From: a virus
Lineage: Duplodnaviria; Heunggongvirae; Uroviricota; Caudoviricetes
IMG/VR virus record: IMGVR_UViG_2548877011_000005
DNA: 12,480 nucleotides
Reading direction: 5' to 3' (one strand)
Every line of letters begins with the position of its first letter. Position 1 is the stretch's first letter. The position numbers and the translations under genes were made by a program. The notes under the pieces are model-generated. The model was not told where the DNA came from and did not search any database. It was given only the letters and a program-made list of their open reading frames with translations. Below, in pieces: positions 1 through 12,480 of this stretch.

Positions 1-1745
1 ACGCCAATCCGGCTGGTTGCCTCCTTCGTGAAGACAAACTCACCACGGTGAACAATCCCCGCTGGCTCATATTTGCCGCCGGTTCCCGTAAATCCTCCGG
101 TTGCAAAATGGAATTTCGCCGCAGCGGCCTGAATGGCTGCCAGCAGGGATTTCTCCTGTGCAGACAGCTGGCGACGTTGCGCCGCCTCCTCCAGTACCGC
201 GAACTGACTCTCCGCCTTCCACAAATCCCGGCGCTGCTGGCTGATTTTCTCATTCGCTCCGCTGTGCTTCTCCAGCGTCCGGAGCTCGGTTTCAAGCGCC
301 AGCAGGGCAGCATGCGCCTGGTCTTCCTGACGCTCACCGGCTGACACTTTGACTCCTGACGACTTCGGCTTTTTCAGCGTCGATTCATAATCCTTTTTCG
401 CCGCCGCCATCAGCGTGTTGTAATCCGCCTGCAGGATTTTCCCGTCTTTCAGGGCCTTATTCAGCTCTTCCTGCCGGTTAGTATATTTCTCCAGCGGCGT
501 CAGCAGACGCTCATACGCCTTCTGCGCCTCTCCGGTATACTTCAGCCGTGATGCGTCCCGTTCGGCCCGGTCCCTGGTAGCCAGTTCACCGGCTTTTTCC
601 ATATCTGACTGCAGCGTGGCCGCTGCCAGCCCCAGACGGGCATTTTCCCGGTCATCCCATGCGCCCTGCAGGTTGGCACGGAAAGAGGAGGTCTTTCCCC
701 GGCGCTGGCTCCGGCTCTGGTACCACTGCCATTTTTTATCCGCCTCATCGAATGCCTTCTGCGCACTGGCAAGCATATCCGCTGAGGATTCCGGACGACC
801 AATATCCAGAATGGCATCCCACATCGATTTGAACGCCTTCCCTGTTTTATCCGCCCAGGTCTCCAGCGTCCCCATGTTTTCTTTCAGGCGACGGGTCTGC
901 TCATCAAAGCCTTTCGTGGCGATATCGTTCGCCGCCTGTAAGGCCCCGGCCTCATCACCGGAACGCTGCAGCTGCGCAACAAACGCAATCTGCTCTGCCG
1001 TCACGTTACGGAACTGGCGCGCCATCGCAATCAGCCCCGACGTAGGGTCGGTGGTCAGTTTTCCGAAAGCCTCTGCAACCTTGTCCACCTCCACACCGGA
1101 TGCAGAAGCAAAACGCGCGACACTCTGGTTGATGGCATCAAACTGTTCACCACCACGCACACCGGCATTCACCAGGGCTGCCAGTGACTCACTCGCCTGG
1201 TTAAACGTCAGCCCTGCGGCCTGTCCGGCTCTGGAGAGCGTCAGCATGCGATCGGCAGTCAGTCCGGACTGATTACCGGAAAGAACCAGGGTTTTATTAA
1301 ACGCTGAAAGCGTGGAATCCCCCCGGTACCAGGCGTACGCCAGCGCACCTGTCGCCACCGCCAGCGAGGTGACCCCGACCATCGGCAGGGTGATCGCACC
1401 GGCAAGCCCCCTGAACATGGGGATCATCCCGCCGAAGGAGTCCTTCACCTGACCGCCCTGTTGCAGCAGGATCAGCCAGGGATTCTGACCACCGGCAAGC
1501 TGCGTGGCGATATCCGTAAACTGTGCGGGCAGGGTTCGCATGGCCGCTTTATACTGCCCGACGGAAATCCCGGCTTTTTGTGCAGCCAGCGCCTGGCGGC
1601 TCAGGCCCTGTTCAACAGCACTGGCGGTTTTTCTGGCGTCAGTCTCCAGTCCGGAAAAATGACGCCTTACCCGGCTCATCTGCTCATCGAAACGGACCGC
1701 ATCCAGACTCAGGTCAACGACCAGATCGCCTACCGGTTCAGCCAT
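1..1745 (-). CDS. H: Tail tape measure protein gpH, N-terminal 581 codons only; 3' end lies beyond the window start
   Basis: ATG at 1745-1743 (minus) overlaps the T stop at 1738-1740, as in the lambda T/H junction. The minus-strand frame stays open to position 1, which is why no complete ORF appears in the track. Translation begins MAEPVGDLVVDLSLDAVRFDEQMSR... and a checked stretch (1461-1550, reverse complement) gives AAMRTLPAQFTDIATQLAGGQNPWLILLQQ, matching lambda gpH as I recall it. Confidence 0.9.
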   Translation of the reverse strand, partial: MAEPVGDLVVDLSLDAVRFDEQMSRVRRHFSGLETDARKTASAVEQGLSRQALAAQKAGISVGQYKAAMRTLPAQFTDIATQLAGGQNPWLILLQQGGQVKDSFGGMIPMFRGLAGAITLPMVGVTSLAVATGALAYAWYRGDSTLSAFNKTLVLSGNQSGLTADRMLTLSRAGQAAGLTFNQASESLAALVNAGVRGGEQFDAINQSVARFASASGVEVDKVAEAFGKLTTDPTSGLIAMARQFRNVTAEQIAFVAQLQRSGDEAGALQAANDIATKGFDEQTRRLKENMGTLETWADKTGKAFKSMWDAILDIGRPESSADMLASAQKAFDEADKKWQWYQSRSQRRGKTSSFRANLQGAWDDRENARLGLAAATLQSDMEKAGELATRDRAERDASRLKYTGEAQKAYERLLTPLEKYTNRQEELNKALKDGKILQADYNTLMAAAKKDYESTLKKPKSSGVKVSAGERQEDQAHAALLALETELRTLEKHSGANEKISQQRRDLWKAESQFAVLEEAAQRRQLSAQEKSLLAAIQAAAAKFHFATGGFTGTGGKYEPAGIVHRGEFVFTKEATSRIG

Positions 1746-2576
1746 ACCGGACTCCTCCTGCGATCCCTTCTGATACTGTCATCAGCATTACGTCATCCTC
1801 CGTCATGTCCGCCACATCCGGGGAAGCGGGGATAACTTCATTCCCGTCCGGGCCAAAGCGGACACCTCCGGCAAGCCCTGCCGCTTTCTGCATCAGCACA
1901 TCATCTTCAGGCTCTTCGTCAGCCTCGCGCCGGTTAAGCAGACTGAAATCCAGCGGATGCATATCCGGATCGCTGAAAAACAGGCTGAGCACGGTGTACG
2001 TCAGCCCGGAAAAGTGCATATCCAGCAGAACATCATGAAAATAATGGGTACTGTAAAAGCGGTGCCAGTCGGCATACTCCGTGGATGACATCCCGGCAAG
2101 CATGGCACGCCAGTCGGGTCGCCCCATCTCACGCGCCAGTTTCAGGGCAAAACTCAGCTCACCGTCGAACACTTTCCCGCAGAAACAGGCTCTGCAGGCC
2201 CGGCGTCCTCTGTCTGTTCAGGGGCATTATTCACCACAAACTCATACATACCGGACAGCCGGTACACCACGTTTTCAGCATGAGAAATTGCCTCCGTGGG
2301 CCAGGTGGTAAGCACTTCCTGCTCAATTTGTTTAACGGCTTCATTCATGGACGGCATCTGCGTCTTCTGCGGATGGTTATGCCACAGGGACATCGCCACC
2401 AGAAACGCGCCGGTTCTGATGGCGTCTTCCACAGTAAACTTCCGATTGCTGTCTGACTCCGCCTGTTCTGCCTGCCGTTTCATCAGGGCGAGATGCTCAA
2501 TACGCTGCAGGGCTGACAGTTCAGAAAGCGTGACGGTCACACCGTTATGTTCAAATGATTCGGTTTTCAGGAACAT
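1738..2576 (-). CDS. T: Tail assembly chaperone fusion gpG-T, made by programmed -1 frameshift at the slippery heptamer 2172-2178; the T part (1738-2172) has no start of its own
   Basis: Track ORF 1738..2172 (MFDGELSFALKLAREMGRPDW...) lies in the -1 frame relative to G and overlaps its 3' end. The heptamer G GGA AAG sits in G's zero frame exactly at the overlap. The arrangement matches the lambda G/GT frameshift. Confidence 0.8.
2154..2576 (-). CDS. G: Tail assembly chaperone gpG (140 aa)
   Basis: Track ORF with ATG at 2576-2574; GGAGAG Shine-Dalgarno upstream; lies after the V stop (2592-2594). Translation MFLKTESFEHNGVTVTLSELSALQRIEHLALMKRQ... matches lambda gpG from memory. Confidence 0.93.
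   Translation of the reverse strand: MFLKTESFEHNGVTVTLSELSALQRIEHLALMKRQAEQAESDSNRKFTVEDAIRTGAFLVAMSLWHNHPQKTQMPSMNEAVKQIEQEVLTTWPTEAISHAENVVYRLSGMYEFVVNNAPEQTEDAGPAEPVSAGKCSTVS
2172..2178 (-). other. Programmed -1 ribosomal frameshift slippery site GGGAAAG (X XXY YYZ)
   Basis: Plus-strand ctttccc at 2172-2178 is GGGAAAG on the minus strand. In the G frame the codons are GGA (2177-2175) and AAG (2174-2172); a -1 slip gives GGG AAA GTG TTC GAC, i.e. ...K V F D G E L S F, which is the start of the T ORF. Confidence 0.8.
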
Positions 2577-2591
2577 CTCTGACTCTCCGGA

Positions 2592-3332
2592 TTAACTGGC
2601 GGTGACGGTGATTTCTGCAACCGCAGCAAACTCACCATTACCGGATACGACCGGAATGTTGACCTTACCTGCAGCAACGCCATTCACGGTGATGGTCATA
2701 CCACTGACCGACACGGTGGCTTTTGTTTTATCCGCTGACACCGCACGGAAGCTCTTGTCGGTTGCGCCTTCCGGCTGGAAGGCCACGGTCAGCGTGGTGC
2801 TCTTCCCTTTCACTACGGAAGCGCTGGCTGGCGTCACGGTCATGCCGGTTGCCGCTGTTACCGTGCTGCGATCTTCTGCCATCGACGGACGTCCCACATT
2901 GGTGACTTTCACCGTGCGGGTGATCACTTCCTTCGCCGTCACCGCCTTACCGATACTGCTGACCCAGCCACGGAACACATCGACCGTGCCGTTCGGGAAG
3001 CGGATTTTATAGGCACGGGTATCGCCTTCATTAAACCACGCCAGCAGCGCCTGCTGCCCCTGCTCTCCGGGCATCCACGCCAGCGTGAAGCTGGTATCTC
3101 CGGCAGATTTCTGCCCCTGCCCGGTCGCGGTCCAGTCTGCATCTTCATCATCGAGATAGCTGTCGTCATAGGACTCAGCGGTCATCTCGCCCGGCGTCAG
3201 ATCCTTCACCTTAGCCAGTCGCTGCCAGTCATCGTCTGACAACGGGTTTGCATAAGCATCACCCTTGCCGTTGTAAACCCACAGAGTGGTACCGGCACCT
3301 TTTACCGGCTCAAGGGGATTTGGTGTTGCCAT
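2592..3332 (-). CDS. V: Major tail tube protein gpV (246 aa) with C-terminal Ig-like (Big_2) domain
   Basis: ATG at 3332-3330 preceded by GAGGA. Translation [36 protein letters not shown]... matches lambda gpV; the C-terminal ~90 aa ([20 protein letters not shown]...AEITVTAS) has the Big_2-type Ig-like pattern. Confidence 0.95.
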
Positions 3333-3339
3333 ATCGTCC

Positions 3340-3735
3340 TCACATCTCGTATGTAATGGAATAAGTCAGATCTGCAGAACTCCACAATGCCATATCGTCA
3401 TCACGACGATAGTCATAGCCCTGCGTAACCATCGTGGTAATCAGTCCTACCAGTGCCGGGATCGCGGTCATCGCCGGATAAATCCGGCTTTCCATCCACG
3501 AATCCAGCTCTGAATCCGGTACCTGTGCCGGTAAAAACACCTCAATATGCAGTGTGGCCCGCCAGGTATCTGCATCCAGCTCTTCACCGGTATACTCTGC
3601 ATCCGTCAGATAAACCGCGATCGCAGGAAAATCCTCTTCGTCAAAAACAACGGGGCGACCATCAAACAGCGTCGCCCCGTGTTCATGCTGCTCGAGTGCA
3701 TCCAGCACTGCCGCACGGATATCAGTATGTTTCAT
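3340..3735 (-). CDS. U: Tail terminator protein gpU (131 aa)
   Basis: ATG at 3735-3733 overlaps the Z stop (3734-3732) as ATGA. Translation [36 protein letters not shown]...[10 protein letters not shown] matches lambda gpU. Confidence 0.93.
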
Positions 3736-4307
3736 CGTTTTATCGCAATCCTCAGCTGTTGTTTCAGCGCGTATGCCAGTTCTCCGGGCAGACGTTCACG
3801 CCGGATACGGTCAACGTTTTCATCAAACGCCTGTTTCAGTGGGGCCGCCATCGGGATTTTCACCACCTGAATAGGAAGGCGATTACGCTTTTTCCTGCCC
3901 TTGTCGTCATTGCCCTTCTCATATCTGGCCTGGGGAAGACGTTGCATAACATGCCAGCGCCCATTATTTAATCGCTGGATAAATGCCCGCTGATAACGAT
4001 GCTGACCGGCTTTGAGTATGCTGTTCGGACGACGCCTCAGCATTCTGATCCCCAGCTTAATCACAGGAAGATCACCGCGGTTAACGATAATTTTTGCATT
4101 CGGATTTCTGACCGTGGCCCGTTTCAGTCTGGACCGTTCCTTAACCAGTTTCCGTCTCACCCTGGTTTCCCGGGCAACCTGTGATGAAGACTGATTAATC
4201 GCCGTTGTGGCCACGCGGTTAATGGTCATTGCAGAAGCCGCCGGAATGGCGTTTTTACGAACCCGGCTCAGATTATCAATCGCCTGCTCAAGCCCTTTTA
4301 TCGCCAT
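3732..4307 (-). CDS. Z: Tail completion protein gpZ (191 aa)
   Basis: ATG at 4307-4305. Translation MAIKGLEQAIDNLSRVRKNAIPAASAMTINRVA... is lambda gpZ-like, and the gene sits between FII and U as in lambda. Confidence 0.9.
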   Translation of the reverse strand: MAIKGLEQAIDNLSRVRKNAIPAASAMTINRVATTAINQSSSQVARETRVRRKLVKERSRLKRATVRNPNAKIIVNRGDLPVIKLGIRMLRRRPNSILKAGQHRYQRAFIQRLNNGRWHVMQRLPQARYEKGNDDKGRKKRNRLPIQVVKIPMAAPLKQAFDENVDRIRRERLPGELAYALKQQLRIAIKR

Positions 4308-4322
4308 AATTTCACCCTGCGT

Positions 4323-4676
4323 TTATCGTCGCCGGTTAACGGCGGGTGGTTGCCCACGGTTGAGCCAGAGATAACAGCTGCCCCCGTCATCCGGAGAAAC
4401 ACGATCCACCCAGAACGTCTCACCATTAATGGTCAGCGTGTCACCACGCCGCACAGCACGAACCGTATCCGTCCGCACAAATAATGACGGGCTGCTTCCT
4501 TCAATACGGACCCCGCTACCGGCAAATCCCAGCGACTCCGGATCGTCAAAAACCCCCTGAACTTCTCCGCCACACTGTGCCCCCGAGGTGAACTGTGCAC
4601 AGAGCCCCATCACTTCAACAATCGTACTGTCCAGCCCGGCAAGGGCAGCATCAAAGGCATTCTGAAAATCACGCAT
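4323..4676 (-). CDS. FII: Head-tail joining protein gpFII (117 aa from the ATG at 4676)
   Basis: Track ORF 4323..4712 trimmed to the ATG at 4676-4674, giving MRDFQNAFDAALAG..., which aligns with the lambda FII N-terminus and abuts the FI stop (4669-4671). The C-terminus ...VDRVSPDDGGSCYLWLNRGQPPAVNRRR is lambda FII-like. Confidence 0.85.
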   Translation of the reverse strand: MRDFQNAFDAALAGLDSTIVEVMGLCAQFTSGAQCGGEVQGVFDDPESLGFAGSGVRIEGSSPSLFVRTDTVRAVRRGDTLTINGETFWVDRVSPDDGGSCYLWLNRGQPPAVNRRR

Positions 4677-5043
4677 AAACAGCCATTCCGCCATCAACGT
4701 GTGTTTTTGCATCTGAGGACATAATCAGAATCACCCGACCAACATCCGCAAGCTCAACGGATTCCCCTGTTTCACCATCAATGCCACAGAGATGGAGGCA
4801 GGTCAGAACTCTGATGCGCGTTAACGCACCGGATGTATCCTCACGAACATCATGAGCCGCGGTTTCCCGCTCCCGGATCACCGTATCCCCAACCTGAACA
4901 TCCTCGCCGGATGACTGTATTTCCTCTTCCCATTCCGCCACCCGCTGCGCTATCTCTGCGGCACTCCCGGATATATCCGGCTCACGCCCCAGAATCAGGG
5001 CCAGTTCATCAAGCCGTTTCAGATTTTGCTCTTTCGTTGCCAT
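4669..5043 (-). CDS. FI: Head DNA-packaging/stabilisation protein gpFI-like (124 aa from the ATG at 5043)
   Basis: Track ORF 4669..5091 trimmed to the ATG at 5043-5041 (MATKEQNLKRLDELALILGRE...), preceded by a G-rich Shine-Dalgarno (CAGGGGGCTGAT ATG). The longer reading would run through the hairpin after E. Position and acidic composition fit lambda FI. Confidence 0.72.
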   Translation of the reverse strand: MATKEQNLKRLDELALILGREPDISGSAAEIAQRVAEWEEEIQSSGEDVQVGDTVIRERETAAHDVREDTSGALTRIRVLTCLHLCGIDGETGESVELADVGRVILIMSSDAKTHVDGGMAVYA

Positions 5044-5057
5044 ATCAGCCCCCTGTG

Positions 5058-5086
5058 AAAAAAGACACGGGGGCATTTCGCCCCCG
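5058..5086 (-). terminator. Candidate intrinsic terminator or attenuating stem-loop after E: 7-bp GC stem (CGGGGGC/GCCCCCG), 5-nt loop, then UGUC and U6
   Basis: Minus-strand reading of 5086-5055 is CGGGGGCGAAATGCCCCCGTGTCTTTTTTCAC, lying between the E stop (5095-5097) and the FI start (5043). The U-tract is 4 nt from the stem, so this is not a textbook terminator. Confidence 0.35.
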
Positions 5087-5094
5087 CTCACGGA

Positions 5095-6123
5095 TTATTT
5101 CACCTGTACCACCACAAACTCATCCGGGTCCGGCAACACCATCAGCGGCGCGGACTGCGTCATGGTAAATTCACGGGCGGGATCCCCCACCGTCAGCCAG
5201 TGTTTCGGATAACGGGAAGAGGCCACCACACCTTCGGACAACGCCTGCGCATCCTGAATGGCACCGTAACAACGGATCCCATCTGCAGCAGTATTCCCCA
5301 AAACCAGCATGCCCTCCGGCAGATAACGTTTTTCGATACCGTCTTCTGCTATATAAGACGTTTTCGCCACCACAATGGCCAGATCGCCGTAATACCCCTT
5401 GAAGGACACCACTGCGCCCAGATCTTTCACTGCCGTTTCGAGTTGAGAATTTGAACCGCGACGGGTATCCAGTTTTTCGCGGAACAGCTTAAAACCATTC
5501 AGAAGACGCCAGACGGTACCGTCCATAATGGCAATATTCACAAGACCGCTGGCCTGGTCGCAGTAGAGGTCAAGATCATGTGTAGGATCGAACGTGTCAC
5601 GATCCTGTTTTGACCACTCCTTACCACTACCCTGAGTGATGTTATTCTTCGTCGACCTGCCAAAATCGACCTCAATTTTCTCGAACTGGTCTCCTTCCAT
5701 CGTATATTTGCCATACAACACAGCATTTACCGCCTGTATTTCTTCCACCTGGACAATCGCGTGCTCTTCCTGTTTGAGGTTATCGGTAATGATACGCAGA
5801 CGGCGGTAAGCCGGATCGTTCAGTTGAGCCGGATCTTCACCAGGAAGGCGCTCAACCGCCTGCTGGTAATTAAATTCGTGTTTCGGCTTGACGTAGCCCG
5901 GACGTAACACGCGGGTTTCACCACCACGATGACGCAGCACTTTTCCTTCAACAACCGGGGAGACATAGGCCGCCACCGGCGTTTTTCCGGTAATTTTGTC
6001 CAGCATCACCTCTTCGGTATGGAAATTCACCGTACGGCGGAAAAACAGCTCCAGAAACAGCGCACGAAATTTCACTTTTTGTTCGGTATAACCGAGTAAC
6101 TGGCGGGTCGTAAACAATCCCAT
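5095..6123 (-). CDS. E: Major capsid protein gpE (342 aa)
   Basis: ATG at 6123-6121 with AAAGGAA upstream. Translation MGLFTTRQLLGYTEQKVKFRALFLELFF...REFTMTQSAPLMVLPDPDEFVVVQVK resembles lambda gpE throughout, though clearly diverged. Confidence 0.95.
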   Translation of the reverse strand: MGLFTTRQLLGYTEQKVKFRALFLELFFRRTVNFHTEEVMLDKITGKTPVAAYVSPVVEGKVLRHRGGETRVLRPGYVKPKHEFNYQQAVERLPGEDPAQLNDPAYRRLRIITDNLKQEEHAIVQVEEIQAVNAVLYGKYTMEGDQFEKIEVDFGRSTKNNITQGSGKEWSKQDRDTFDPTHDLDLYCDQASGLVNIAIMDGTVWRLLNGFKLFREKLDTRRGSNSQLETAVKDLGAVVSFKGYYGDLAIVVAKTSYIAEDGIEKRYLPEGMLVLGNTAADGIRCYGAIQDAQALSEGVVASSRYPKHWLTVGDPAREFTMTQSAPLMVLPDPDEFVVVQVK

Positions 6124-6151
6124 AAATCAGTTCCTTTCATTCAGAAATCAG

Positions 6152-6173
6152 TCAGGCCACCGCGGTGGCCTGA
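6152..6173. repeat. Perfect 22-bp palindrome TCAGGCCACCGCGGTGGCCTGA in the D-E intergenic region; function unknown
   Basis: Read directly: 6152-6162 tcaggccaccg is the reverse complement of 6163-6173 cggtggcctga. It lies between the D stop (6181-6183) and the E start (6123); no adjacent U-run. Confidence 0.9.
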
Positions 6174-6180
6174 TAACGTG

Positions 6181-6528
6181 TTACGGCAGCGCCGCGTGAC
6201 TCAGGGCACTGCCGGCAAAGGCATTTGCCTTTTTGTGTTCATCCACACTTTCAGGCCAGCGGATTGCCTCCGTCGCAAAGGTCCCCGACTTGTAATAGGT
6301 CAGTACCGTCTCTGTGCCTTCAAGCGGCAGTACCAGTATGCCAACTGCACTACCGGCTTTCTGTCCGTCCCAGACCACCAGTTTCCCGCTGGCTTCATCC
6401 AGCATCAGGGGCGTCAGTGCCGGTGTTGCCGAGGAAATCCCGCTGCTGCCTGTGGCGGTATGAGCCGGATCATTACCGGCAAAAATACGTACTTCCGCAC
6501 GCTGTTCAGTGATGGTTTTCGTTACCAT
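6181..6528 (-). CDS. D: Head decoration protein gpD (115 aa)
   Basis: ATG at 6528-6526 with AGGAGG upstream (plus cctcct 6541-6546). Translation contains DPAHTATGSSG...TPLMLDEASGKLVVWDG...YYKSGTF...KANAFAG, matching lambda gpD motifs. Confidence 0.93.
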   Translation of the reverse strand: MVTKTITEQRAEVRIFAGNDPAHTATGSSGISSATPALTPLMLDEASGKLVVWDGQKAGSAVGILVLPLEGTETVLTYYKSGTFATEAIRWPESVDEHKKANAFAGSALSHAALP

Positions 6529-6564
6529 ATTGTAAAAACCTCCTGTTGATGGTCAGCACTGACT

Positions 6565-7167
6565 TCATGGCATAGCCATGAGCATTTTCACGTCCGCATC
6601 ACCGTCTGCTGACGTCTGTGGCACGCCACCCTGTACCGCTGCCGGTGAATGGTTCGCCATGATGCGTTCAAACAGGGCGGTTGTGGATGCAGAGACCGGT
6701 TCTGCCTTACCTGATCCCGCAGCCAGCACAGCCCGGGCGCTCTCCACAGTCATTCCCGGGCAGGCAGCCAGCTGTTCAGCCTGCGCCTCAGCCCCTTTTG
6801 CCTCATCCAGTGCCATGATCTGATCACGGAGTGAGGGTCCGGCATCCGCCTGCGGTGAAGCAGCCAGGATCGGGCGGGCTTTTTCCACCGTCATCTCCGG
6901 CATCGCCGCCAGCGTTGCCGCCAGTTGTTCACGACCGTTCGCTTCTTCACACGCCATAATGCGATCGGCTTCACTCTGCGTGGATGCCACCGGCTGCTGC
7001 GGTGCCGCCGCGGCCAGAATCGCCCGGGCCTGTTCAACGCTCATGCCCTGTTGTCCTGCCAGCATCGTGGCAAGCTGTTCACGTCCTTTCGCTTCCTGGC
7101 ATGTCAGGATCCCCATCACTCGCTGGTTCTCCTGCGCGGCGGCTTCCGTTGCAGTTAATTGCGGCAT
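6565..7167 (-). CDS. Nu3: Nested in-frame scaffolding protein (Nu3-like, 200 aa) from an internal start inside C
   Basis: In-frame ATG at 7167-7165 (Met302 of C) preceded by a strong Shine-Dalgarno, minus-strand CAGAGGAGGCACT ATG (plus cctcct 7172-7177). Lambda has the same arrangement: Nu3 shares frame and stop with the 3' part of C. Confidence 0.6.
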   Translation of the reverse strand: MPQLTATEAAAQENQRVMGILTCQEAKGREQLATMLAGQQGMSVEQARAILAAAAPQQPVASTQSEADRIMACEEANGREQLAATLAAMPEMTVEKARPILAASPQADAGPSLRDQIMALDEAKGAEAQAEQLAACPGMTVESARAVLAAGSGKAEPVSASTTALFERIMANHSPAAVQGGVPQTSADGDADVKMLMAMP

Positions 7168-8070
7168 AGTGCCTCCTCTGACATTACTGTTCAGCGCCGT
7201 GGCCATCACACTGATGGCATCCGACGCATTGACTAATTCATCCGCCAGCCCGGCATCAATGCCGGACTGACCTTCAAAAACGGCGGCCTCTGTTCCCGTG
7301 ACGGCATCAACAGACAGACCGGTAAACATCGCCACTTTTTCGGCAAACATCCGGCGCGCCGCATCAATGCGCTGCTGCATGTCCTGGCGAACCTCTGCCG
7401 GTAAGGCTTCAAACTGATTGCCATCCACCTTGTGCGCCCCTGAGTAAATCAGCGTGATATCCACACCGGCCTGCGCCAGATGACCGGCATAGCTGACATG
7501 GCTCATCATCACGCCAATGGAGCCGATACGGGATGTCTGGGTAACCAGCCGTCGGGAGCAGGCCGACGCCAGCAGCATGGCTGCAGAACAGGCCGTGTCA
7601 TTGCACAGTGCCCAGACCGGCTTCTGCTGACGGAGGCGGTAAATCATGTCAGCGCAGTCAAACGCGCCGGCGGCCTGCCCGCCCGGACTGTCAATGTCCA
7701 GCAGTACGCCCCGCACCTGGCTATCCGCCATTGCCTGCTGAAGACAGGCGACAATACCGTCATAGCCTGTCATTCCGGAAAATGGCCGCATACCCCCCAG
7801 CCGGTGCACCAGCGTGCCGGTCACCGGCAGTACAGCAATACCGTTCACCACCCTGTAAACACGGGCCGGTCGTTTACCTCCGGCCATGTACTCGTCCGTT
7901 TCAGCCAGCATTCCGGGAGCATCAAACTGTACCTGCTGTTGTGGTACCGAAAGACTTGCTGCCCCCATCTCGCGCCCGAGCGCGCAAAAGAAAACCCGCG
8001 CATAGGCGGGCTCCAGAAGCAGCGGTTCATTGAATGCTGCGGCAATAATGTGTGAAAGATTACGTCTCAC
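6565..8070 (-). CDS. C: Prohead protease / scaffold gpC (S49 ClpP/SppA-like peptidase domain, 501 aa), GTG start
   Basis: Track ORF starting at GTG 8070-8068, overlapping the B stop (8060-8062), with GAGGAG upstream. N-terminus MRRNLSHIIAAAFNEPLLLEPAYARVFFCAL matches lambda gpC; central region ...VWALCNDTACSAAMLLASACSRRLVTQTSRIGSIGVMMSH... is the S49 peptidase core. Confidence 0.92.
   Translation of the reverse strand: MRRNLSHIIAAAFNEPLLLEPAYARVFFCALGREMGAASLSVPQQQVQFDAPGMLAETDEYMAGGKRPARVYRVVNGIAVLPVTGTLVHRLGGMRPFSGMTGYDGIVACLQQAMADSQVRGVLLDIDSPGGQAAGAFDCADMIYRLRQQKPVWALCNDTACSAAMLLASACSRRLVTQTSRIGSIGVMMSHVSYAGHLAQAGVDITLIYSGAHKVDGNQFEALPAEVRQDMQQRIDAARRMFAEKVAMFTGLSVDAVTGTEAAVFEGQSGIDAGLADELVNASDAISVMATALNSNVRGGTMPQLTATEAAAQENQRVMGILTCQEAKGREQLATMLAGQQGMSVEQARAILAAAAPQQPVASTQSEADRIMACEEANGREQLAATLAAMPEMTVEKARPILAASPQADAGPSLRDQIMALDEAKGAEAQAEQLAACPGMTVESARAVLAAGSGKAEPVSASTTALFERIMANHSPAAVQGGVPQTSADGDADVKMLMAMP
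6709..7122 (-). repeat. Three tandem, diverged copies of a ~37-53 aa module (~111-159 bp) in the scaffold region of C/Nu3
   Basis: Protein copies: RVMGILTCQEAKGREQLATMLAGQQGMSVEQARAILAAAAPQ (from aa317), RIMACEEANGREQLAATLAAMPEMTVEKARPILAASPQ (aa370), IMALDEAKGAEAQAEQLAACPGMTVESARAVLAAGSG (aa418). DNA copies are visibly related at about 6730-6830, 6840-6965 and 7000-7120. Confidence 0.75.
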
Positions 8071-9652
8071 GGGGTGTTGTCTCCTCTTCCGGCCTGCGAC
8101 TCTCCGCTATCTGCTGCTGATACGCCTGCGCTATCCACACCGGACGTGAGAGTCCGGCTTTTTGCCGCTCTGCAGATTCCCTGACCTGCTGGCGGAAAAT
8201 GTCCTGATAATCCTCGCCCATCAGCGCCAGCTCTTTCTCATACGTGCTCAGTCCGGCCTCAATGCGCATCACCGATTCCTGAACCTCCTTGAGCCCGTCA
8301 ATGGCCATTCTTCCGGCACCAATCCACTCTGCCCGTGACCAGGCTGATCGCGCCTGATAAAAATCAAAACGCGCCCGTGGCGGACGGATAATCCCCCGAA
8401 GAAGTGCCTCTTCCAGCCAGCAGGAAAACATCTGCGTGGCCAGCCGGGCCGCAATAAATTTTCGCCGCCCCATAAAATAGCGCCACGACTCATTGGCAGA
8501 GGCCCTGGCACTTGAATAACTGACCTTCGAGTAATCACGGGACAACTGTTCGTAGGAAACGCCAAGACCGGCGGCGATATACCGCAGCAGCGCCTGTTCA
8601 AGCGCCGAAAATCCATTGTCTGAATCCTGCGCAGTCTGTAGTTTCAGATCATCCCCGGGGAAAAGGTGCGGAATTTTGACACCGCCCAGCGTCACGCTAT
8701 TCGTGTCATACCAGGTGGAGAACTTATCCAGAATATTAATAAGCGGATTATCCTTCTGCCCCTGCGGCGCACCGGCGATATATTCAAAGGCCTTTTCGGT
8801 ATCAAGTTCACTTTCAATCGTCGCTGCATACATCGCCTTCACTATGGCCGACTGAAGCTGTGTTGCCTGCAGGGAATCGAGCATCTTCAGCCGTTCCATG
8901 ACGCTGTAAAACTGATTAGCCCCACGGGTCTGCCCGTCCTCCACCGGCTCGAAAATATGCAGCATGGCCGGACGCCCGGTGGGAAGTTCACGCGGGATCC
9001 GTTCCCATCGTCCACTCCCGGAGCGAGGAAAATCATCCTCACAGATATGGTACGCAACGGCACGGCCATATCGATCGACCTCCACCCCGGCCCGCAGAAA
9101 ACGGTTCCCCATACCGTGTCCTGGCGTGTCCACCCGTTTCGGACTCACGGCTTTAAAACGCGTACGGAATAACTGCGTGGTTTCCGTATCCCAGACCGGC
9201 TGCACAAAGATTTCGCCGTTAAACGCATGAACGCCCACACCTTCACGGATAAATTCCGTGAACGTGCGTTTTCCTTCCACGTCGATCTCGCCAGACATCC
9301 CTTCTGCGTATTCTGACCAGGCCGCCTCCACCTCATCGACAAAACTTTTTGCCGCGGTCTCCCGCATCCCCAGCCAGCGCCAGTTCGGACGGTAGCTAAT
9401 CAGAAACATATGCCCGACAATGTGATCCTTATGCAGGGCCACCGCATTGGCCGCTATTCCGTTATTGCGCACCAGATCATCTGCACGGGCATTCCCCAGA
9501 CGCAACGCGGGCAGCAGGGCCGCATCGGCACTCTGCGCCGGTGGCAACCACTCTGCCATTTGCCCGCCAAATCCTGCACCGCCACCGTTGTAGCTGAGGC
9601 TCTCCCGAAGCGGAACGCCGTTCACATCAATCAGGACAGGCGTTCGTTTCAT
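8060..9652 (-). CDS. B: Portal protein gpB (530 aa)
   Basis: ATG at 9652-9650 overlaps the W stop (9651-9649) as ATGA. Size and position (between W and C) match lambda gpB; translation MKRTPVLIDVNGVPLRESLSYNGGGAGFGGQMAEW... is portal-like. Confidence 0.95.
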   Translation of the reverse strand: MKRTPVLIDVNGVPLRESLSYNGGGAGFGGQMAEWLPPAQSADAALLPALRLGNARADDLVRNNGIAANAVALHKDHIVGHMFLISYRPNWRWLGMRETAAKSFVDEVEAAWSEYAEGMSGEIDVEGKRTFTEFIREGVGVHAFNGEIFVQPVWDTETTQLFRTRFKAVSPKRVDTPGHGMGNRFLRAGVEVDRYGRAVAYHICEDDFPRSGSGRWERIPRELPTGRPAMLHIFEPVEDGQTRGANQFYSVMERLKMLDSLQATQLQSAIVKAMYAATIESELDTEKAFEYIAGAPQGQKDNPLINILDKFSTWYDTNSVTLGGVKIPHLFPGDDLKLQTAQDSDNGFSALEQALLRYIAAGLGVSYEQLSRDYSKVSYSSARASANESWRYFMGRRKFIAARLATQMFSCWLEEALLRGIIRPPRARFDFYQARSAWSRAEWIGAGRMAIDGLKEVQESVMRIEAGLSTYEKELALMGEDYQDIFRQQVRESAERQKAGLSRPVWIAQAYQQQIAESRRPEEETTPRET

Positions 9653-9855
9653 AACCTCACTCCCAGCGGACGACGGCGACGGCGGGTTGTCCCCAGTACC
9701 GACTCCGCATCATTGATCGCCCGGTTAAGCTCATCCAGAGAAGCTGCCGTATATTCAATTCTGCGACCATCTTTCTGGACAGACACCACCCGTTTACCGG
9801 TTAATAAATCAAGGCGCGCCTGACGCAGCGCCTGCAGTTCAGCGACTGTAACCAT
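9649..9855 (-). CDS. W: Head-tail joining / DNA stabilisation protein gpW (68 aa)
   Basis: ATG at 9855-9853 with GGAGGAG upstream; overlaps the A 3' end by 17 nt. Translation [40 protein letters not shown]... resembles lambda gpW (TGKRVATVQKDGRRVEF). Confidence 0.9.
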   Translation of the reverse strand: MVTVAELQALRQARLDLLTGKRVVSVQKDGRRIEYTAASLDELNRAINDAESVLGTTRRRRRPLGVRL

Positions 9856-11767
9856 TCACTCCTCCGGACAGCTTCGCTGCCAGTTCTTTCAGGGTTGGCC
9901 GGGTCGTCTCTTCTTCCCGGGATTTTGCCAGTACAGCCAGATCAAGCTGCCAGCGTTGCACGGACACACGTAATGCCGCGTAGGCATACACCAGGCAGTC
10001 CAGCGCTTCGTTACGCCGCTTTTTGTTATCCCACAGCAGACGCATCTTTCCTTTTTCCCACTTCTCCACAAGCTCTTCCGCCACCAGTTGCTGCGCCTCT
10101 GTCTGCGAAAAAATCTCCGGATCATCAGGAAAACGGATGGCATACGACGTGGCTTCATCCGCAGGCGTGGGATCGGCTTTCATACGGGCATAGAGAATTT
10201 CTTTTGCGGTGTCCGTCCCCACTTCGCACAGATACACGCCCCACTGATTGCGGGTTTTTGGCATGGTGATCACCGGCTTGCCATAAACAGATGCACCTTT
10301 TACCGGCAGCACCCGGAAAACACCGTGTTTTTTTGACCTCTGATAGACAATTTCGCCATCGATCCCCCCGGTGTCCCAGCAGACACGGGAAATGGTCATT
10401 TCGGTTCCGTCTGCATGGCGGTATTTTTTGTTGATCGCCACATCCACACGTAACAGCGTCTCTTCCTCATCAGGACGCCCCATAATGATGATTTTATCCA
10501 CCAGAAAGGCTTCCTCTCCCGGAGCCCATCCCCAGACATACATCTCAAAACGGTTTCGCTGCGAGTCAATGCCCGCCGTCAGATAAACCACTCGGGAAGG
10601 CACCGCAGCCGTGTAACGCACAACCTTATCCATCAGCACCTGGTGATCGAGTTTTTCGCCCACGGCCTCTTCCCAGGTCTCGCCCAGCGTGGTGTTCACA
10701 AAGGTTTTCAGGCCGTTGGGATCTTTCAGTGCATCCAGCCAGTCATAGACAATCTGTACCCAGGTGGTGAACGGACTGTACGCCGTCCAGATATGGAATG
10801 TGATGGAGCGCGGCGGCGGAATTTCATCACCCCGGGCGCTGAAAAACATCAGGCCGTCACGGGTCCACATGCCCGTGTTTTCACAGATCCACCGCCCGTT
10901 ACTCTGGTCAAGCTCAGACTGATGGATCACACAGCCATGATGCTCACAAAGGTAGAAAACACTTTCTGGCTTATTCTTCTCCCACTTAAGACCGAAAGGC
11001 GAGGCATCATCGCCAAATTTCAGATACTGCTCCTCCCCACAGTGCGGACAGGGCACATAAAAACGCATGAAGTGTGCCGACTCGTTAGCGGCTTTTTCGA
11101 TCTGGCAGGAGCCTTTGATTTTAGGCGTCGAGCCGCGAATGGATTTTGGCCATACAGAGCCCTCAATACGTTTATCCCCCAGCAGGGTTGGCGAACCCTC
11201 TTTTTCAACATCCGGTTCGAACGAGGAAAGCTCGTCATAACAGACCACATCCACGGATTTTTCACGGTAGTTTTTTGCTGCCGCACCACCCAGACACCAG
11301 AACCCCACACCGGAGGAAAAACGCTTCAGGGTGAGCGTATTATCGCGGTGTTTTCTTCCGAACCATGGAGCCAGCTCCAGCAATGCAGGAACATCCCTTA
11401 TCGTTGGCTCAACATGAGATTTCATAAAATCTTCAGCAGCTGAGTCCGTGGGCTGAAAAAGAAGGCTGTTGCGTGATTTATGCTCAATAAAATAAGCCTC
11501 CACTCCCAGCAACATCTTTGTATAACCAACACGGGCAGATTTAATCAGGTTAACCGTGCGAATCAGATCGTTGCCCATACAGTTCATGATGCCAACCTGA
11601 AACGGCAGTGTTTCCCACCGCCCCGGGGTATAAGACGACTCTTTAGGAAGGTAATAATGTTTATTGGCCCACTGAACTGTCGTCAGTGGAACAGGAATAA
11701 TGAGAGATAAAAGCCCTGTAGCTATCGCACCGGCTGCATTAGCTGCCTTCTGCGCGTCTGAAATCAT
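9839..11767 (-). CDS. A: Terminase large subunit gpA (642 aa from the ATG at 11767; track ORF extends to 11809)
   Basis: Lambda gpA-like along its length ([72 protein letters not shown]). The ATG at 11767 has a GGTGGA Shine-Dalgarno and gives the same N-terminal length as lambda before YYLPKES; overlap with Nu1 is then 29 nt. Confidence 0.93.
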
Positions 11768-12287
11768 CGATCCACCCGCCCACGTTTTCACCGGCCTTAG
11801 CTGAAACATTGGAGGCTTTCGCGATTTCAGTTTTCACCACATCAAGGTGTGATGGTGAAATGTCCGGATATTTACGCTGTAATGTCAACGGCACACGCAC
11901 AAGTATCCCCGAAATCTCCTGTGCCACACGTTGTAGAATGAAGGTAAACAGTTCAGTTTCCAGCACTACTCCGTCTTCACGGGCATTTTTCAGTTCCTGC
12001 GCATCTGCCTGCGCTTTTGTGAGTCGGTAGCGTTCATAGTCAATGGTGCCGGGTTGTAAATCTGACTCCGCTGCCGCACGCAAATCGTCCAGTTCTTTGC
12101 GGAGCTTTTCGTTTTCGATATCAGTTTCCCTCTGCGCATACCACTGAATTGCCATGGCAGTATCAAATACAGATTCAATGCCCTTACTACCTTTGGAGGC
12201 GCAAGGGAGTCCCTGAGACTGCCAGCGTTCAATCGTCCGCGGGTCCACGTTGAAAATTTCGGCAAGCCTCTTTTTATTAACCTTCAT
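11739..12287 (-). CDS. Nu1: Terminase small subunit gpNu1 (182 aa), N-terminal winged-HTH DNA-binding domain
   Basis: ATG at 12287-12285, about 190 nt from the cohesive end as in lambda. Translation [28 protein letters not shown]...[28 protein letters not shown] matches lambda Nu1 (MEVNKKQLADIF...RTIQNWQEQGMP...). Confidence 0.93.
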
Positions 12288-12315
12288 GAAAACAACCCAT
12301 TATCAAATACAAGGC

Positions 12316-12326
12316 CCGACATGAAA
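12316..12326 (-). promoter_or_regulatory. Candidate terminase small-subunit binding repeat, R1-like position (ccgacatgaaa)
   Basis: Forms an 11-bp perfect inverted repeat with 12354-12364; about 151-161 nt from the cohesive end (lambda R1 is ~150-165 as I recall). Confidence 0.45.
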
Positions 12327-12353
12327 ACGCCAGAAAAAGGCATTTTCGGACAC

Positions 12354-12364
12354 TTTCATGTCGG
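12354..12364 (+). promoter_or_regulatory. Candidate terminase small-subunit binding repeat, R2-like position, inverted (tttcatgtcgg)
   Basis: Exact reverse complement of 12316-12326; about 113-123 nt from the cohesive end. Confidence 0.45.
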
Positions 12365-12416
12365 ACCTTTACGGATGCAATATTAAAGAAAAACAAAAAG
12401 TTATATTCGAGAAGTA

Positions 12417-12429
12417 CCGACACGATTTT
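12417..12429 (-). promoter_or_regulatory. Candidate terminase small-subunit binding repeat, R3-like position (ccgacacgatttt; partial match)
   Basis: Shares CCGACA-GA with the 12316 copy in the same orientation; about 48-60 nt from the cohesive end (lambda R3 is ~50-65 as I recall). Confidence 0.3.
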
Positions 12430-12464
12430 CCCTGAAAAATTTTCATAAATAGTGAAAAACCGCG

Positions 12465-12476
12465 AGGTCGCCGCCC
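12465..12476 (-). other. cosN: 12-nt cohesive-end sequence GGGCGGCGACCT (minus-strand reading), the terminase nicking site
   Basis: Plus-strand aggtcgccgccc at 12465-12476 is the reverse complement of the lambda cohesive end GGGCGGCGACCT. The following minus-strand bases (CGCGGTTTTTCACTATTTATGAAAATTTTTCAGGG) stay close to the lambda left end as I recall it. Confidence 0.85.
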
Positions 12477-12480
12477 CGTA

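Follow-up and report, generated by a model that had tools for sequence, protein, structure and literature searches.

Patchwork structure of a lambdoid prophage contig from Shiga-toxin-producing Escherichia coli

Introduction

The genome of phage 21 and its relation to phage lambda have already been published (PMC9119081; M81255). If the two phages are aligned, they are about 50–70% identical at the nucleotide level through the head genes and 98–99% identical once the 3′ end of FII is reached; put another way, they differ at 35–50% of nucleotides in the head genes and at only 2–6% from Z through H. The classic junction between 21-like and lambda-like DNA lies within FII (at about 7,900–7,970 of lambda). 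It is also known that Red and other Rad52-like recombinases can recombine DNA that is about 22% diverged and that, in experiments, they build lambdoid mosaics with prophages (PMC2327257, PMC3945230). Here, we consider a stretch of 12,480 nucleotides from a tailed phage (IMG/VR record IMGVR_UViG_2548877011_000005), which we will call the window and which is the left arm of a lambdoid prophage, from cos through the first two-thirds of the tape measure gene H. An original prediction, made from the sequence alone, described it as a mosaic with tail genes close to lambda and diverged head genes. We partly confirmed this: the mosaic is real, and its layout is different.

Very probably, the window is a patchwork that arose by recombination among lambdoid phages and prophages, with an old layer and a recent layer. 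The old layer is visible in comparisons to lambda and phage 21, and it is standard lambdoid modular exchange. The recent layer is visible in comparisons to prophages of E. coli, two of which are enough to account for every base.

Results

Source of the sequence

The window is the reverse complement of AJLU01000005.1 (12,480 bp), which is a whole draft contig of assembly GCA_000258785.1. In the records that cite it, accession AJLU01 is given as the Shiga-toxin-producing E. coli (STEC) strain NCCP15657 from Korea (Kim et al. 2012, J Bacteriol 194:3751; PMC3558956, PMC4436796). Both ends of the window are thus ends of a contig, and repeats shared among prophages probably broke the assembly there. 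Because the phage genes lie on the minus strand of the window, we also use coordinates on the gene-sense strand, which are prefixed with rc and are equal to 12481 minus the window coordinate.

Blocks that resemble phage 21, lambda, or neither

We computed sliding-window and per-gene identities to lambda (J02459) and to phage 21 (OL657228, with M81255 for the head operon). The original prediction had proposed a sliding-window comparison to lambda as a check, and the resulting profile is not uniform: it takes only a few bases for identity to climb from about 50–70% to 99–100%. The blocks have sharp edges, and each of them has a far closer relative elsewhere.

From cos to FI, the window carries the phage 21 allele, which at the nucleotide level is 96–100% identical to phage 21 (96–99.5% for individual genes) and 50–67% identical to lambda. 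It matches M81255, which is a phage 21 sequence from the 1990s, at 98.0% identity over 7,973 nucleotides. The head and packaging genes are of the phage 21 type throughout, including a gp1 of 182 amino acids and a gp5 of 501 amino acids. At the protein level, identities to lambda and to phage 21, respectively, are 51% and 99.5% for Nu1, 65% and 99.2% for A, 50% and 98.5% for W, 60% and 98.7% for B, 46% and 98.4% for C, 50% and 96.5% for D, 60.5% and 98.5% for E, and 24% and 93.5% for FI. So it was correct that Nu1, A, B, C, D, and E are homologous to their lambda counterparts yet substantially diverged from them (46–65% amino acid identity), and the two N-termini of E that were quoted in support are exact (MGLFTTRQLLGYTEQKVKF in the window and MSMYTTAQLLAANEQKFKF in lambda). 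However, these genes are not an unknown divergent lineage of lambda; they are the long-known head operon of phage 21.

Identity to phage 21 begins to fall at the start of FII. The FII gene as a whole is 89% identical to phage 21 and 67% identical to lambda at the nucleotide level (89% and 69% for the protein). Compared to lambda, the N-terminal half of the protein is just 53% identical and the C-terminal half is 85% identical, as had been noticed originally. FII, Z, U, and the first 50 or so codons of V form a third allele: Z and U have 64–79% nucleotide identity to both lambda and phage 21. The Z protein is 59.7% identical to lambda and 59% identical to phage 21, and for U these values are 80.9% and 84%. 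Z and U had been described as intermediate, and by these values they are, but not through decay; they belong to the third allele family, which is equally distant from both phages. The third type of FII-Z-U is found at 98.8% identity in complete E. coli genomes, with at least 80% coverage in 1,849 of the 5,426 genomes.

The switch from the third allele to lambda-type DNA had been placed around FII and Z, and it actually lies inside V, at window 3180–3185 or about codon 50. The last informative site of the third type is rc 9296, and the first of the lambda type is rc 9301. Within these 5 nucleotides, identity to lambda rises from about 76% to 99–100%, synonymous sites included. Over its full length, the V protein is 94.7% identical to lambda and 95.1% identical to phage 21, but this average conceals a chimera: residues 1–52 share 80.8% identity with lambda, compared to 98.5% for residues 53–246. 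The claim that V is nearly identical to lambda holds only for the second part.

The 3′ part of V together with G and T make up a lambda-type block (97% nucleotide identity). G and T are nearly identical to lambda, as predicted: both proteins are 100% identical, with 98.8% and 99.8% identity at the nucleotide level, while their identities to the phage 21 proteins are 91.4% and 96.5%. The lambda-type DNA ends at the boundary of T and H, between informative sites at rc 10763 and rc 10768 (window 1718–1713), at about codon 10 of H.

H was also thought to be nearly identical to lambda, and it is not. Its first 1,607 nucleotides are 81% identical to lambda (79.7% for the protein), and 576 nucleotides of the gene are absent. 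From the T/H boundary on, H belongs once more to the third type, which leaves the 3′ part of V, G, and T as the only tail genes that are close to lambda. The stretch at window 1713–255 is an allele from prophages of enterohemorrhagic E. coli (EHEC): it is 81% identical to lambda and 98–100% identical to prophages of the type that we will call donor b, and the allele is found at 98% identity in E. coli prophages and at 95% in Stx2a-converting phages. According to the informative sites, H returns to the lambda type at window 250–1, and there is no difference from lambda in the last 139 nucleotides of the window. Overall, the original prediction had invoked the classic modular exchange of lambdoid phages, which is the right kind of explanation for a misread anatomy.

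Two prophages account for every base

As relatives of the window, we used prophages of complete genomes as well as contigs that encode the identical portal protein. A greedy painting with exact matches covered all 12,480 bases in seven segments. Just two donors fit almost as well, in the order a-b-a-b-a, and every base is matched by one or the other.

Donor a is a prophage of E. coli Z1323HEC0108, which is a Korean clinical isolate with a complete genome (NZ_CP148374.1, 1,195,610–1,209,640). It has no mismatches in 3,424 nucleotides, i.e., rc 1–1681, 9163–10767, and 12343–12480 (window 12480–10800, 3318–1714, and 138–1). Donor b is JBGEQE010000072.1, a contig from an EHEC-type prophage, with one mismatch in 9,056 nucleotides: there is one in rc 1682–9162 (window 10799–3319) and none in rc 10768–12342 (window 1713–139). 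At the mismatched site, donor a carries the window's base, and the site is polymorphic among b-type prophages. At the 1,890 sites that differ between the donors, a runs test found 7 runs while 859 were expected (z = −43). The intervals that contain the breakpoints are 4–66 nucleotides wide.

We number the junctions of the recent layer J_A through J_D, in the direction of transcription. J_A, from a to b within gene A, lies in a tract of 28 nucleotides where the donors are identical (window 10800–10827; rc 1654–1681); locally, the donors are 90% identical to the left of it and 99% identical to the right. J_B, from the end of U to the start of V, lies in a 66-nucleotide tract of identity (window 3319–3384; rc 9097–9162), with 96% identity between the donors on the left and 91% on the right, and the most recent switch from b to a falls within this tract. 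J_C is an in-register switch from a to b at the T/H boundary, at about codon 10 of H, where the donors share just 4 nucleotides (window 1714–1717; rc 10764–10767). This tract is far narrower than those of J_A and J_B, and in its neighborhood, the donors are only 66–76% identical. J_D, between window 138 and 139 on the minus strand (rc 12342/12343), is the edge of the gap in H. The donors are identical over the 123 nucleotides before J_D, so the switch from b to a and the deletion may be separate events.

In searches with the whole window, we found no single record with this arrangement. The best phage record was 94.7% identical and the best complete E. coli genome was 95.9% identical, and each of them matched in several pieces only.

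The V junction at window 3180–3185 is a different matter, as it lies within a block from donor a and was inherited from it. Four complete E. coli genomes contain a 50-mer across this junction, and this match is also the positive control for our 50-mer searches. This means that lambda-type V, G, and T can be placed beside non-lambda genes without relying on this assembly. Donor a, in a finished genome, already joins a 21-type head to third-type Z and U and to lambda-type V, G, and T.

We also noticed that NZ_CP148374.1, the genome with donor a, carries a b-type prophage as well. This b-type prophage is 100% identical to the window in most of the 150-nucleotide windows across rc ~4,900–8,300 and in much of the 5′ part of H. 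So prophages of both parental types do reside together in single cells.

An apparent deletion in the tape measure gene

At J_D, the window skips 576 nucleotides (192 codons), in frame, relative to every allele of H that we compared. In the alignment to lambda, H jumps over lambda 12131–12705. The deletion spans residues 531–722 or so of lambda gpH, including all of Tape_meas_lam_C, which Pfam places at amino acids 627–701 in H from lambda and at 633–707 in H from b-type prophages; it is absent from H in the window. Both flanks of J_D are found at 100% identity in many genomes, but there they are 576 nucleotides apart. We considered whether a long repeat might have collapsed or caused slipped mispairing here, but the flanks share only 1 nucleotide of microhomology, which rules this out. 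Either J_D is a real deletion or it is an artifact of assembly.

Gene content of the window

The long open reading frames that match phages are all on the minus strand. In a gene-by-gene alignment to lambda and phage 21, they follow the order of the lambda-like late operon (Nu1-A-W-B-C/Nu3-D-E-FI-FII-Z-U-V-G-T-H), and we recorded Pfam families for all 15 products. The features are as follows, in the direction of transcription and with window coordinates.

12465–12476, minus strand: cosN, the 12-nucleotide cohesive end GGGCGGCGACCT, placed by direct alignment with the left ends of phage 21 and lambda and by the annotation of cos sub-sites in OL657228
11739–12287, minus strand: Nu1 (gene 1), terminase small subunit; phage 21 allele; Pfam Phage_Nu1
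9839–11767, minus strand: A (gene 2), terminase large subunit; holds J_A at 10800–10827 (donor a to donor b)
9649–9855, minus strand: W, head completion protein; phage 21 allele
8060–9652, minus strand: B, portal protein; phage 21 allele; an identical protein occurs widely (in 77 index blocks)
6565–8070, minus strand: C with nested Nu3, prohead protease and scaffold; phage 21 allele; 501 amino acids versus 439 in lambda
6181–6528, minus strand: D (shp), head decoration protein; phage 21 allele
5095–6123, minus strand: E (gene 7), major capsid protein; phage 21 allele
4669–5043, minus strand: FI, DNA packaging protein; 100% nucleotide identity to donor-b-type prophages
4323–4676, minus strand: FII, head–tail joining protein; 100% nucleotide identity to donor-b-type prophages; the phage 21 allele is left here
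3732–4307, minus strand: Z, tail completion protein; third allele, with insertions and deletions relative to lambda and phage 21
3340–3735, minus strand: U, tail terminator; third allele
2592–3332, minus strand: V, major tail tube protein; chimera of third-type residues 1–52 and lambda-type residues 53–246
2154–2576, minus strand: G, tail assembly chaperone; slippery site GGGAAAG at 2172–2178
1738–2172, minus strand: T, frameshift extension of the G-T chaperone; lambda-type
1–1745, minus strand: H, tape measure protein, 5′ 1,745 nucleotides; frame open to the end of the contig; Pfam TMP_2

The left end is lambda-like in its organization: the 12-nucleotide 5′ cohesive-end sequence, where cleavage is predicted, is followed by the terminase and IHF sites of cosB, upstream of Nu1. 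The cosB is of the phage 21 type (R3, I1, R2, R1) and runs from cosN to about window 12315. The 190 or so nucleotides after cosN are the same as phage 21 cosB except for one 1-nucleotide difference in a run of T. The contig starts only 4 nucleotides upstream of cosN. This may be a coincidence, or it may reflect a repeat boundary upstream of cos that is common to several prophages, or the sample may have included the ends of linear phage DNA.

The overlap of G and T contains the −1 frameshift heptamer that is expected of a lambda-like G/G-T chaperone. H matches TMP_2 only, rather than both TMP_2 and Tape_meas_lam_C as in a full-length tape measure protein, and its 3′ end lies beyond the contig.

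The scaffold part of C/Nu3 (window ~6707–7101, minus strand) contains three diverged repeats of about 35 amino acids (…EA.G.EQLA..LA….M.VE.AR.ILAA…). M81255 labels them as “Tri boxes, function unknown,” and they explain part of the difference between 501 and 439 amino acids. Tandem Repeats Finder found no repeats in the window, as these ones are too diverged at the DNA level.

Discussion

How might the patchwork have formed? The most likely mechanism would be homologous and homeologous exchange between lambdoid prophages that reside in the same cell or infect it together. The drivers would be the host's RecA along with Red-type (Rad52-like) recombinases from the phages, which tolerate about 20% divergence. 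J_A and J_B would have formed by homologous recombination, and they fit it well, because they lie in tracts of identity that edge the only long region where the donors are about 95% identical. J_C, in register between DNAs that are only about 70% identical, would fit homeologous exchange by Red or another Rad52-like protein. The deletion in H would be a separate, illegitimate event. We also considered a Chi-stimulated hotspot at the junctions, but we dropped this idea, as the 12.5-kb window has no Chi sites (GCTGGTGG) on either strand.

The limits of the blocks appear to keep interacting partners together, given the pairings that are established in the biology of lambda. For example, cosB and Nu1 would have stayed with the N-terminal part of gpA, as expected if packaging specificity is to be maintained. 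Similarly, the C-terminal part of gpA would have stayed with W, with B (the portal) through FII, and with U (so that FII would be kept with U), while V would have stayed with G and G-T.

Although the two-donor pattern itself is clear, the junctions in gene A, at the T/H boundary, and at the deletion in H could be the products of very recent exchange, or else of an error in assembly. We lean towards a real, recent recombinant, with a good deal of room for doubt. The main alternative, which we consider to be possible but rather unlikely, is that NCCP15657 contains separate a-type and b-type prophages, and that these were stitched together by the assembler, by reference-guided consensus, or by filling of gaps. 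If so, then the cell has none of these three junctions. As each parent is already a mosaic in its own right, the older patchwork seen in comparison to lambda would nevertheless remain real.

Several observations weigh against a real recombinant and are easy to understand if there was a mistake in the assembly. The window is an entire, short contig from a draft of 2012, for a type of strain that has many similar prophages; the E. coli genomes that match the window do so in 2 places at the median and in as many as 11. The last junction is just 138 nucleotides from the end of the contig. Two donors explain every base with no private differences, and a perfect mosaic of two parents without mutations of its own is also what we would expect from a mis-join or from reference-guided consensus. 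The a-type blocks correspond to the regions of greatest divergence between the donors, and the long b block corresponds to the region with about 95% identity. Furthermore, the three junctions are seen in this contig only. The exact protein for the chimeric gpA, with its 21/a-type N-terminal half and its b-type C-terminal half, is on record only here. A 50-mer across J_C is absent from the 5,426 complete E. coli genomes, and a 47-mer is absent from IMG/VR. For J_D, a 50-mer is absent from the same complete genomes, a 42-mer is absent from IMG/VR, and a 49-mer is absent from species-representative genomes.

On the other hand, an assembler that is based on k-mers, graphs, or overlaps cannot cross from one prophage to the other via 4 nucleotides (at T/H) or 1 nucleotide (at the deletion in H) in DNA that is about 70% identical. 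A mixture from per-site consensus does not fit either: in the 7.5-kb b block, there are 371 differences between the donors, and none is flipped to a, except at one site, where b-type prophages are themselves polymorphic. If assembly had jumped between the prophages at tracts of identity, then 101 tracts of at least 28 nucleotides were available, of which only two were used. And with both intact parents in the cell, the contig should have broken at the branch points instead of running through all four. Other prophages also switch between a-type and b-type DNA within the 5′ end of H, close by but not at the same positions, so this stretch does exchange in nature.

Two other explanations seem extremely improbable to us. 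The first is that the window came from a laboratory lambda–21 hybrid, by descent or by contamination. Such hybrids with a chimeric 2/A gene do exist (PMC4669245), for example the 21hy phages of packaging studies, and 21-type cos, Nu1, and head genes alongside gpG and gpT that are identical to lambda's are what one would look for in them. Nevertheless, the comparison of mismatches to the donors effectively refutes this: Z, U, and H are neither lambda nor 21; the V-G-T block has 55 differences from laboratory lambda and none from a wild prophage of a clinical isolate; and from window 10799 to 3319, there are 359 mismatches to phage 21, along with 175 unaligned nucleotides, versus one mismatch to a wild b-type prophage. 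The second, with just as little chance of being right, is that a single lineage diverged from lambda without recombination, with purifying selection on its tail and fast evolution in its head; this accounts for little besides a superficial contrast of high identity in tail proteins and low identity in head proteins, and the identity profile and the breakpoints from informative sites refute it, given the leap at V in 5 nucleotides even at synonymous sites, blocks that are each 98–100% identical to a different phage or prophage, diverged Z, U, and H that are tail genes, and the uneven divergence of lambda and phage 21 themselves.

Returning to recombination between prophages as the origin of the junctions, what would it imply for the phage? 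If the deletion in H is real, then either the gene is inactivated or its product is a much shorter tape measure. According to work by Katsura and Hendrix, the length of the lambda tail is reportedly proportional to the length of gpH. It is improbable, in our view, that the T/H junction and the deletion are both genuine and that the prophage is still active. In that case, it would be a natural lambdoid phage whose gpH is shortened by 192 residues and lacks Tape_meas_lam_C, and by proportionality, its tail would be about one-fifth shorter. Also, the 4-base, in-register switch at T/H would be a fresh example of natural homeologous exchange of the Red type between STEC prophages in the same cell, caught before further mutation.

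Every block in the window is a known allele and the phenomenon is in the textbooks; the combination is unique to this contig, but it brings no new principle. The 4-nucleotide in-register junction and the in-frame deletion in the tape measure gene are mildly unusual, and both hinge on confirmation of the assembly. The main use of this analysis is calibration: an impression of mosaicism that was formed from the sequence alone can hold up, even as the details change once identities are computed. Exchange between prophages in STEC also bears on how virulence phages stay mobile. Finally, we would caution against giving a biological reading to unconfirmed junctions that are unique to a short draft contig, if the strain is of a type that is rich in nearly identical prophages.

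Comparison with known phages and prophages

Lambda shares with the window the order of genes from Nu1 to H, the cohesive end, gpG and gpT (at 100% identity), the GGGAAAG site, residues 53–246 of gpV (98.5%), and the last 139 nucleotides. It differs in its head and packaging proteins (24–65%), in Z (60%), in U (81%), and in the 5′ part of H (80% amino acid identity), and it has the 576 nucleotides of H that are missing from the window.

Phage 21 (a Jouyvirus) is like the window in cos, Nu1 (1), A (2), W (3), B (4), C/Nu3 (5/6), D (shp), E (7), and FI, at 96–100% nucleotide identity. The likeness extends to the order of genes, the R sites of cosB, the 501-amino-acid protease/scaffold with its three repeats, and the 12-nucleotide cohesive end. 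However, phage 21 turns lambda-like at the 3′ end of FII and remains so, at 94–99%, through Z, U, V, G, T, and H, whereas the window departs from the 21 allele near where FII begins and has a third allele for FII-Z-U and for most of H. Its V-G-T block is closer to lambda (97% at the nucleotide level, and 98.8–99.8% for G and T) than to phage 21 (92–97%).

Among wild prophages, the donor-a type is also present in strains S1-IND-01-A and B19374, and a fourth genome, Z1322HEC0006, has the 50-mer of the V junction. Donor a differs from the window at 371 positions from A′ through U and at 287 positions in the 5′ part of H, and its H is full length (853 amino acids) and of the lambda type. The donor-b type includes JBGEQE010000072.1, prophages of strains CAU16175 and 99E2750, and Stx2a-converting phages. 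These have the same alleles of FI, FII, Z, U, and H as the window does, but they have their own cosB and Nu1 (169 amino acids), a V of 250 amino acids, a G of 143, a T of 137, and a full-length H of 859.

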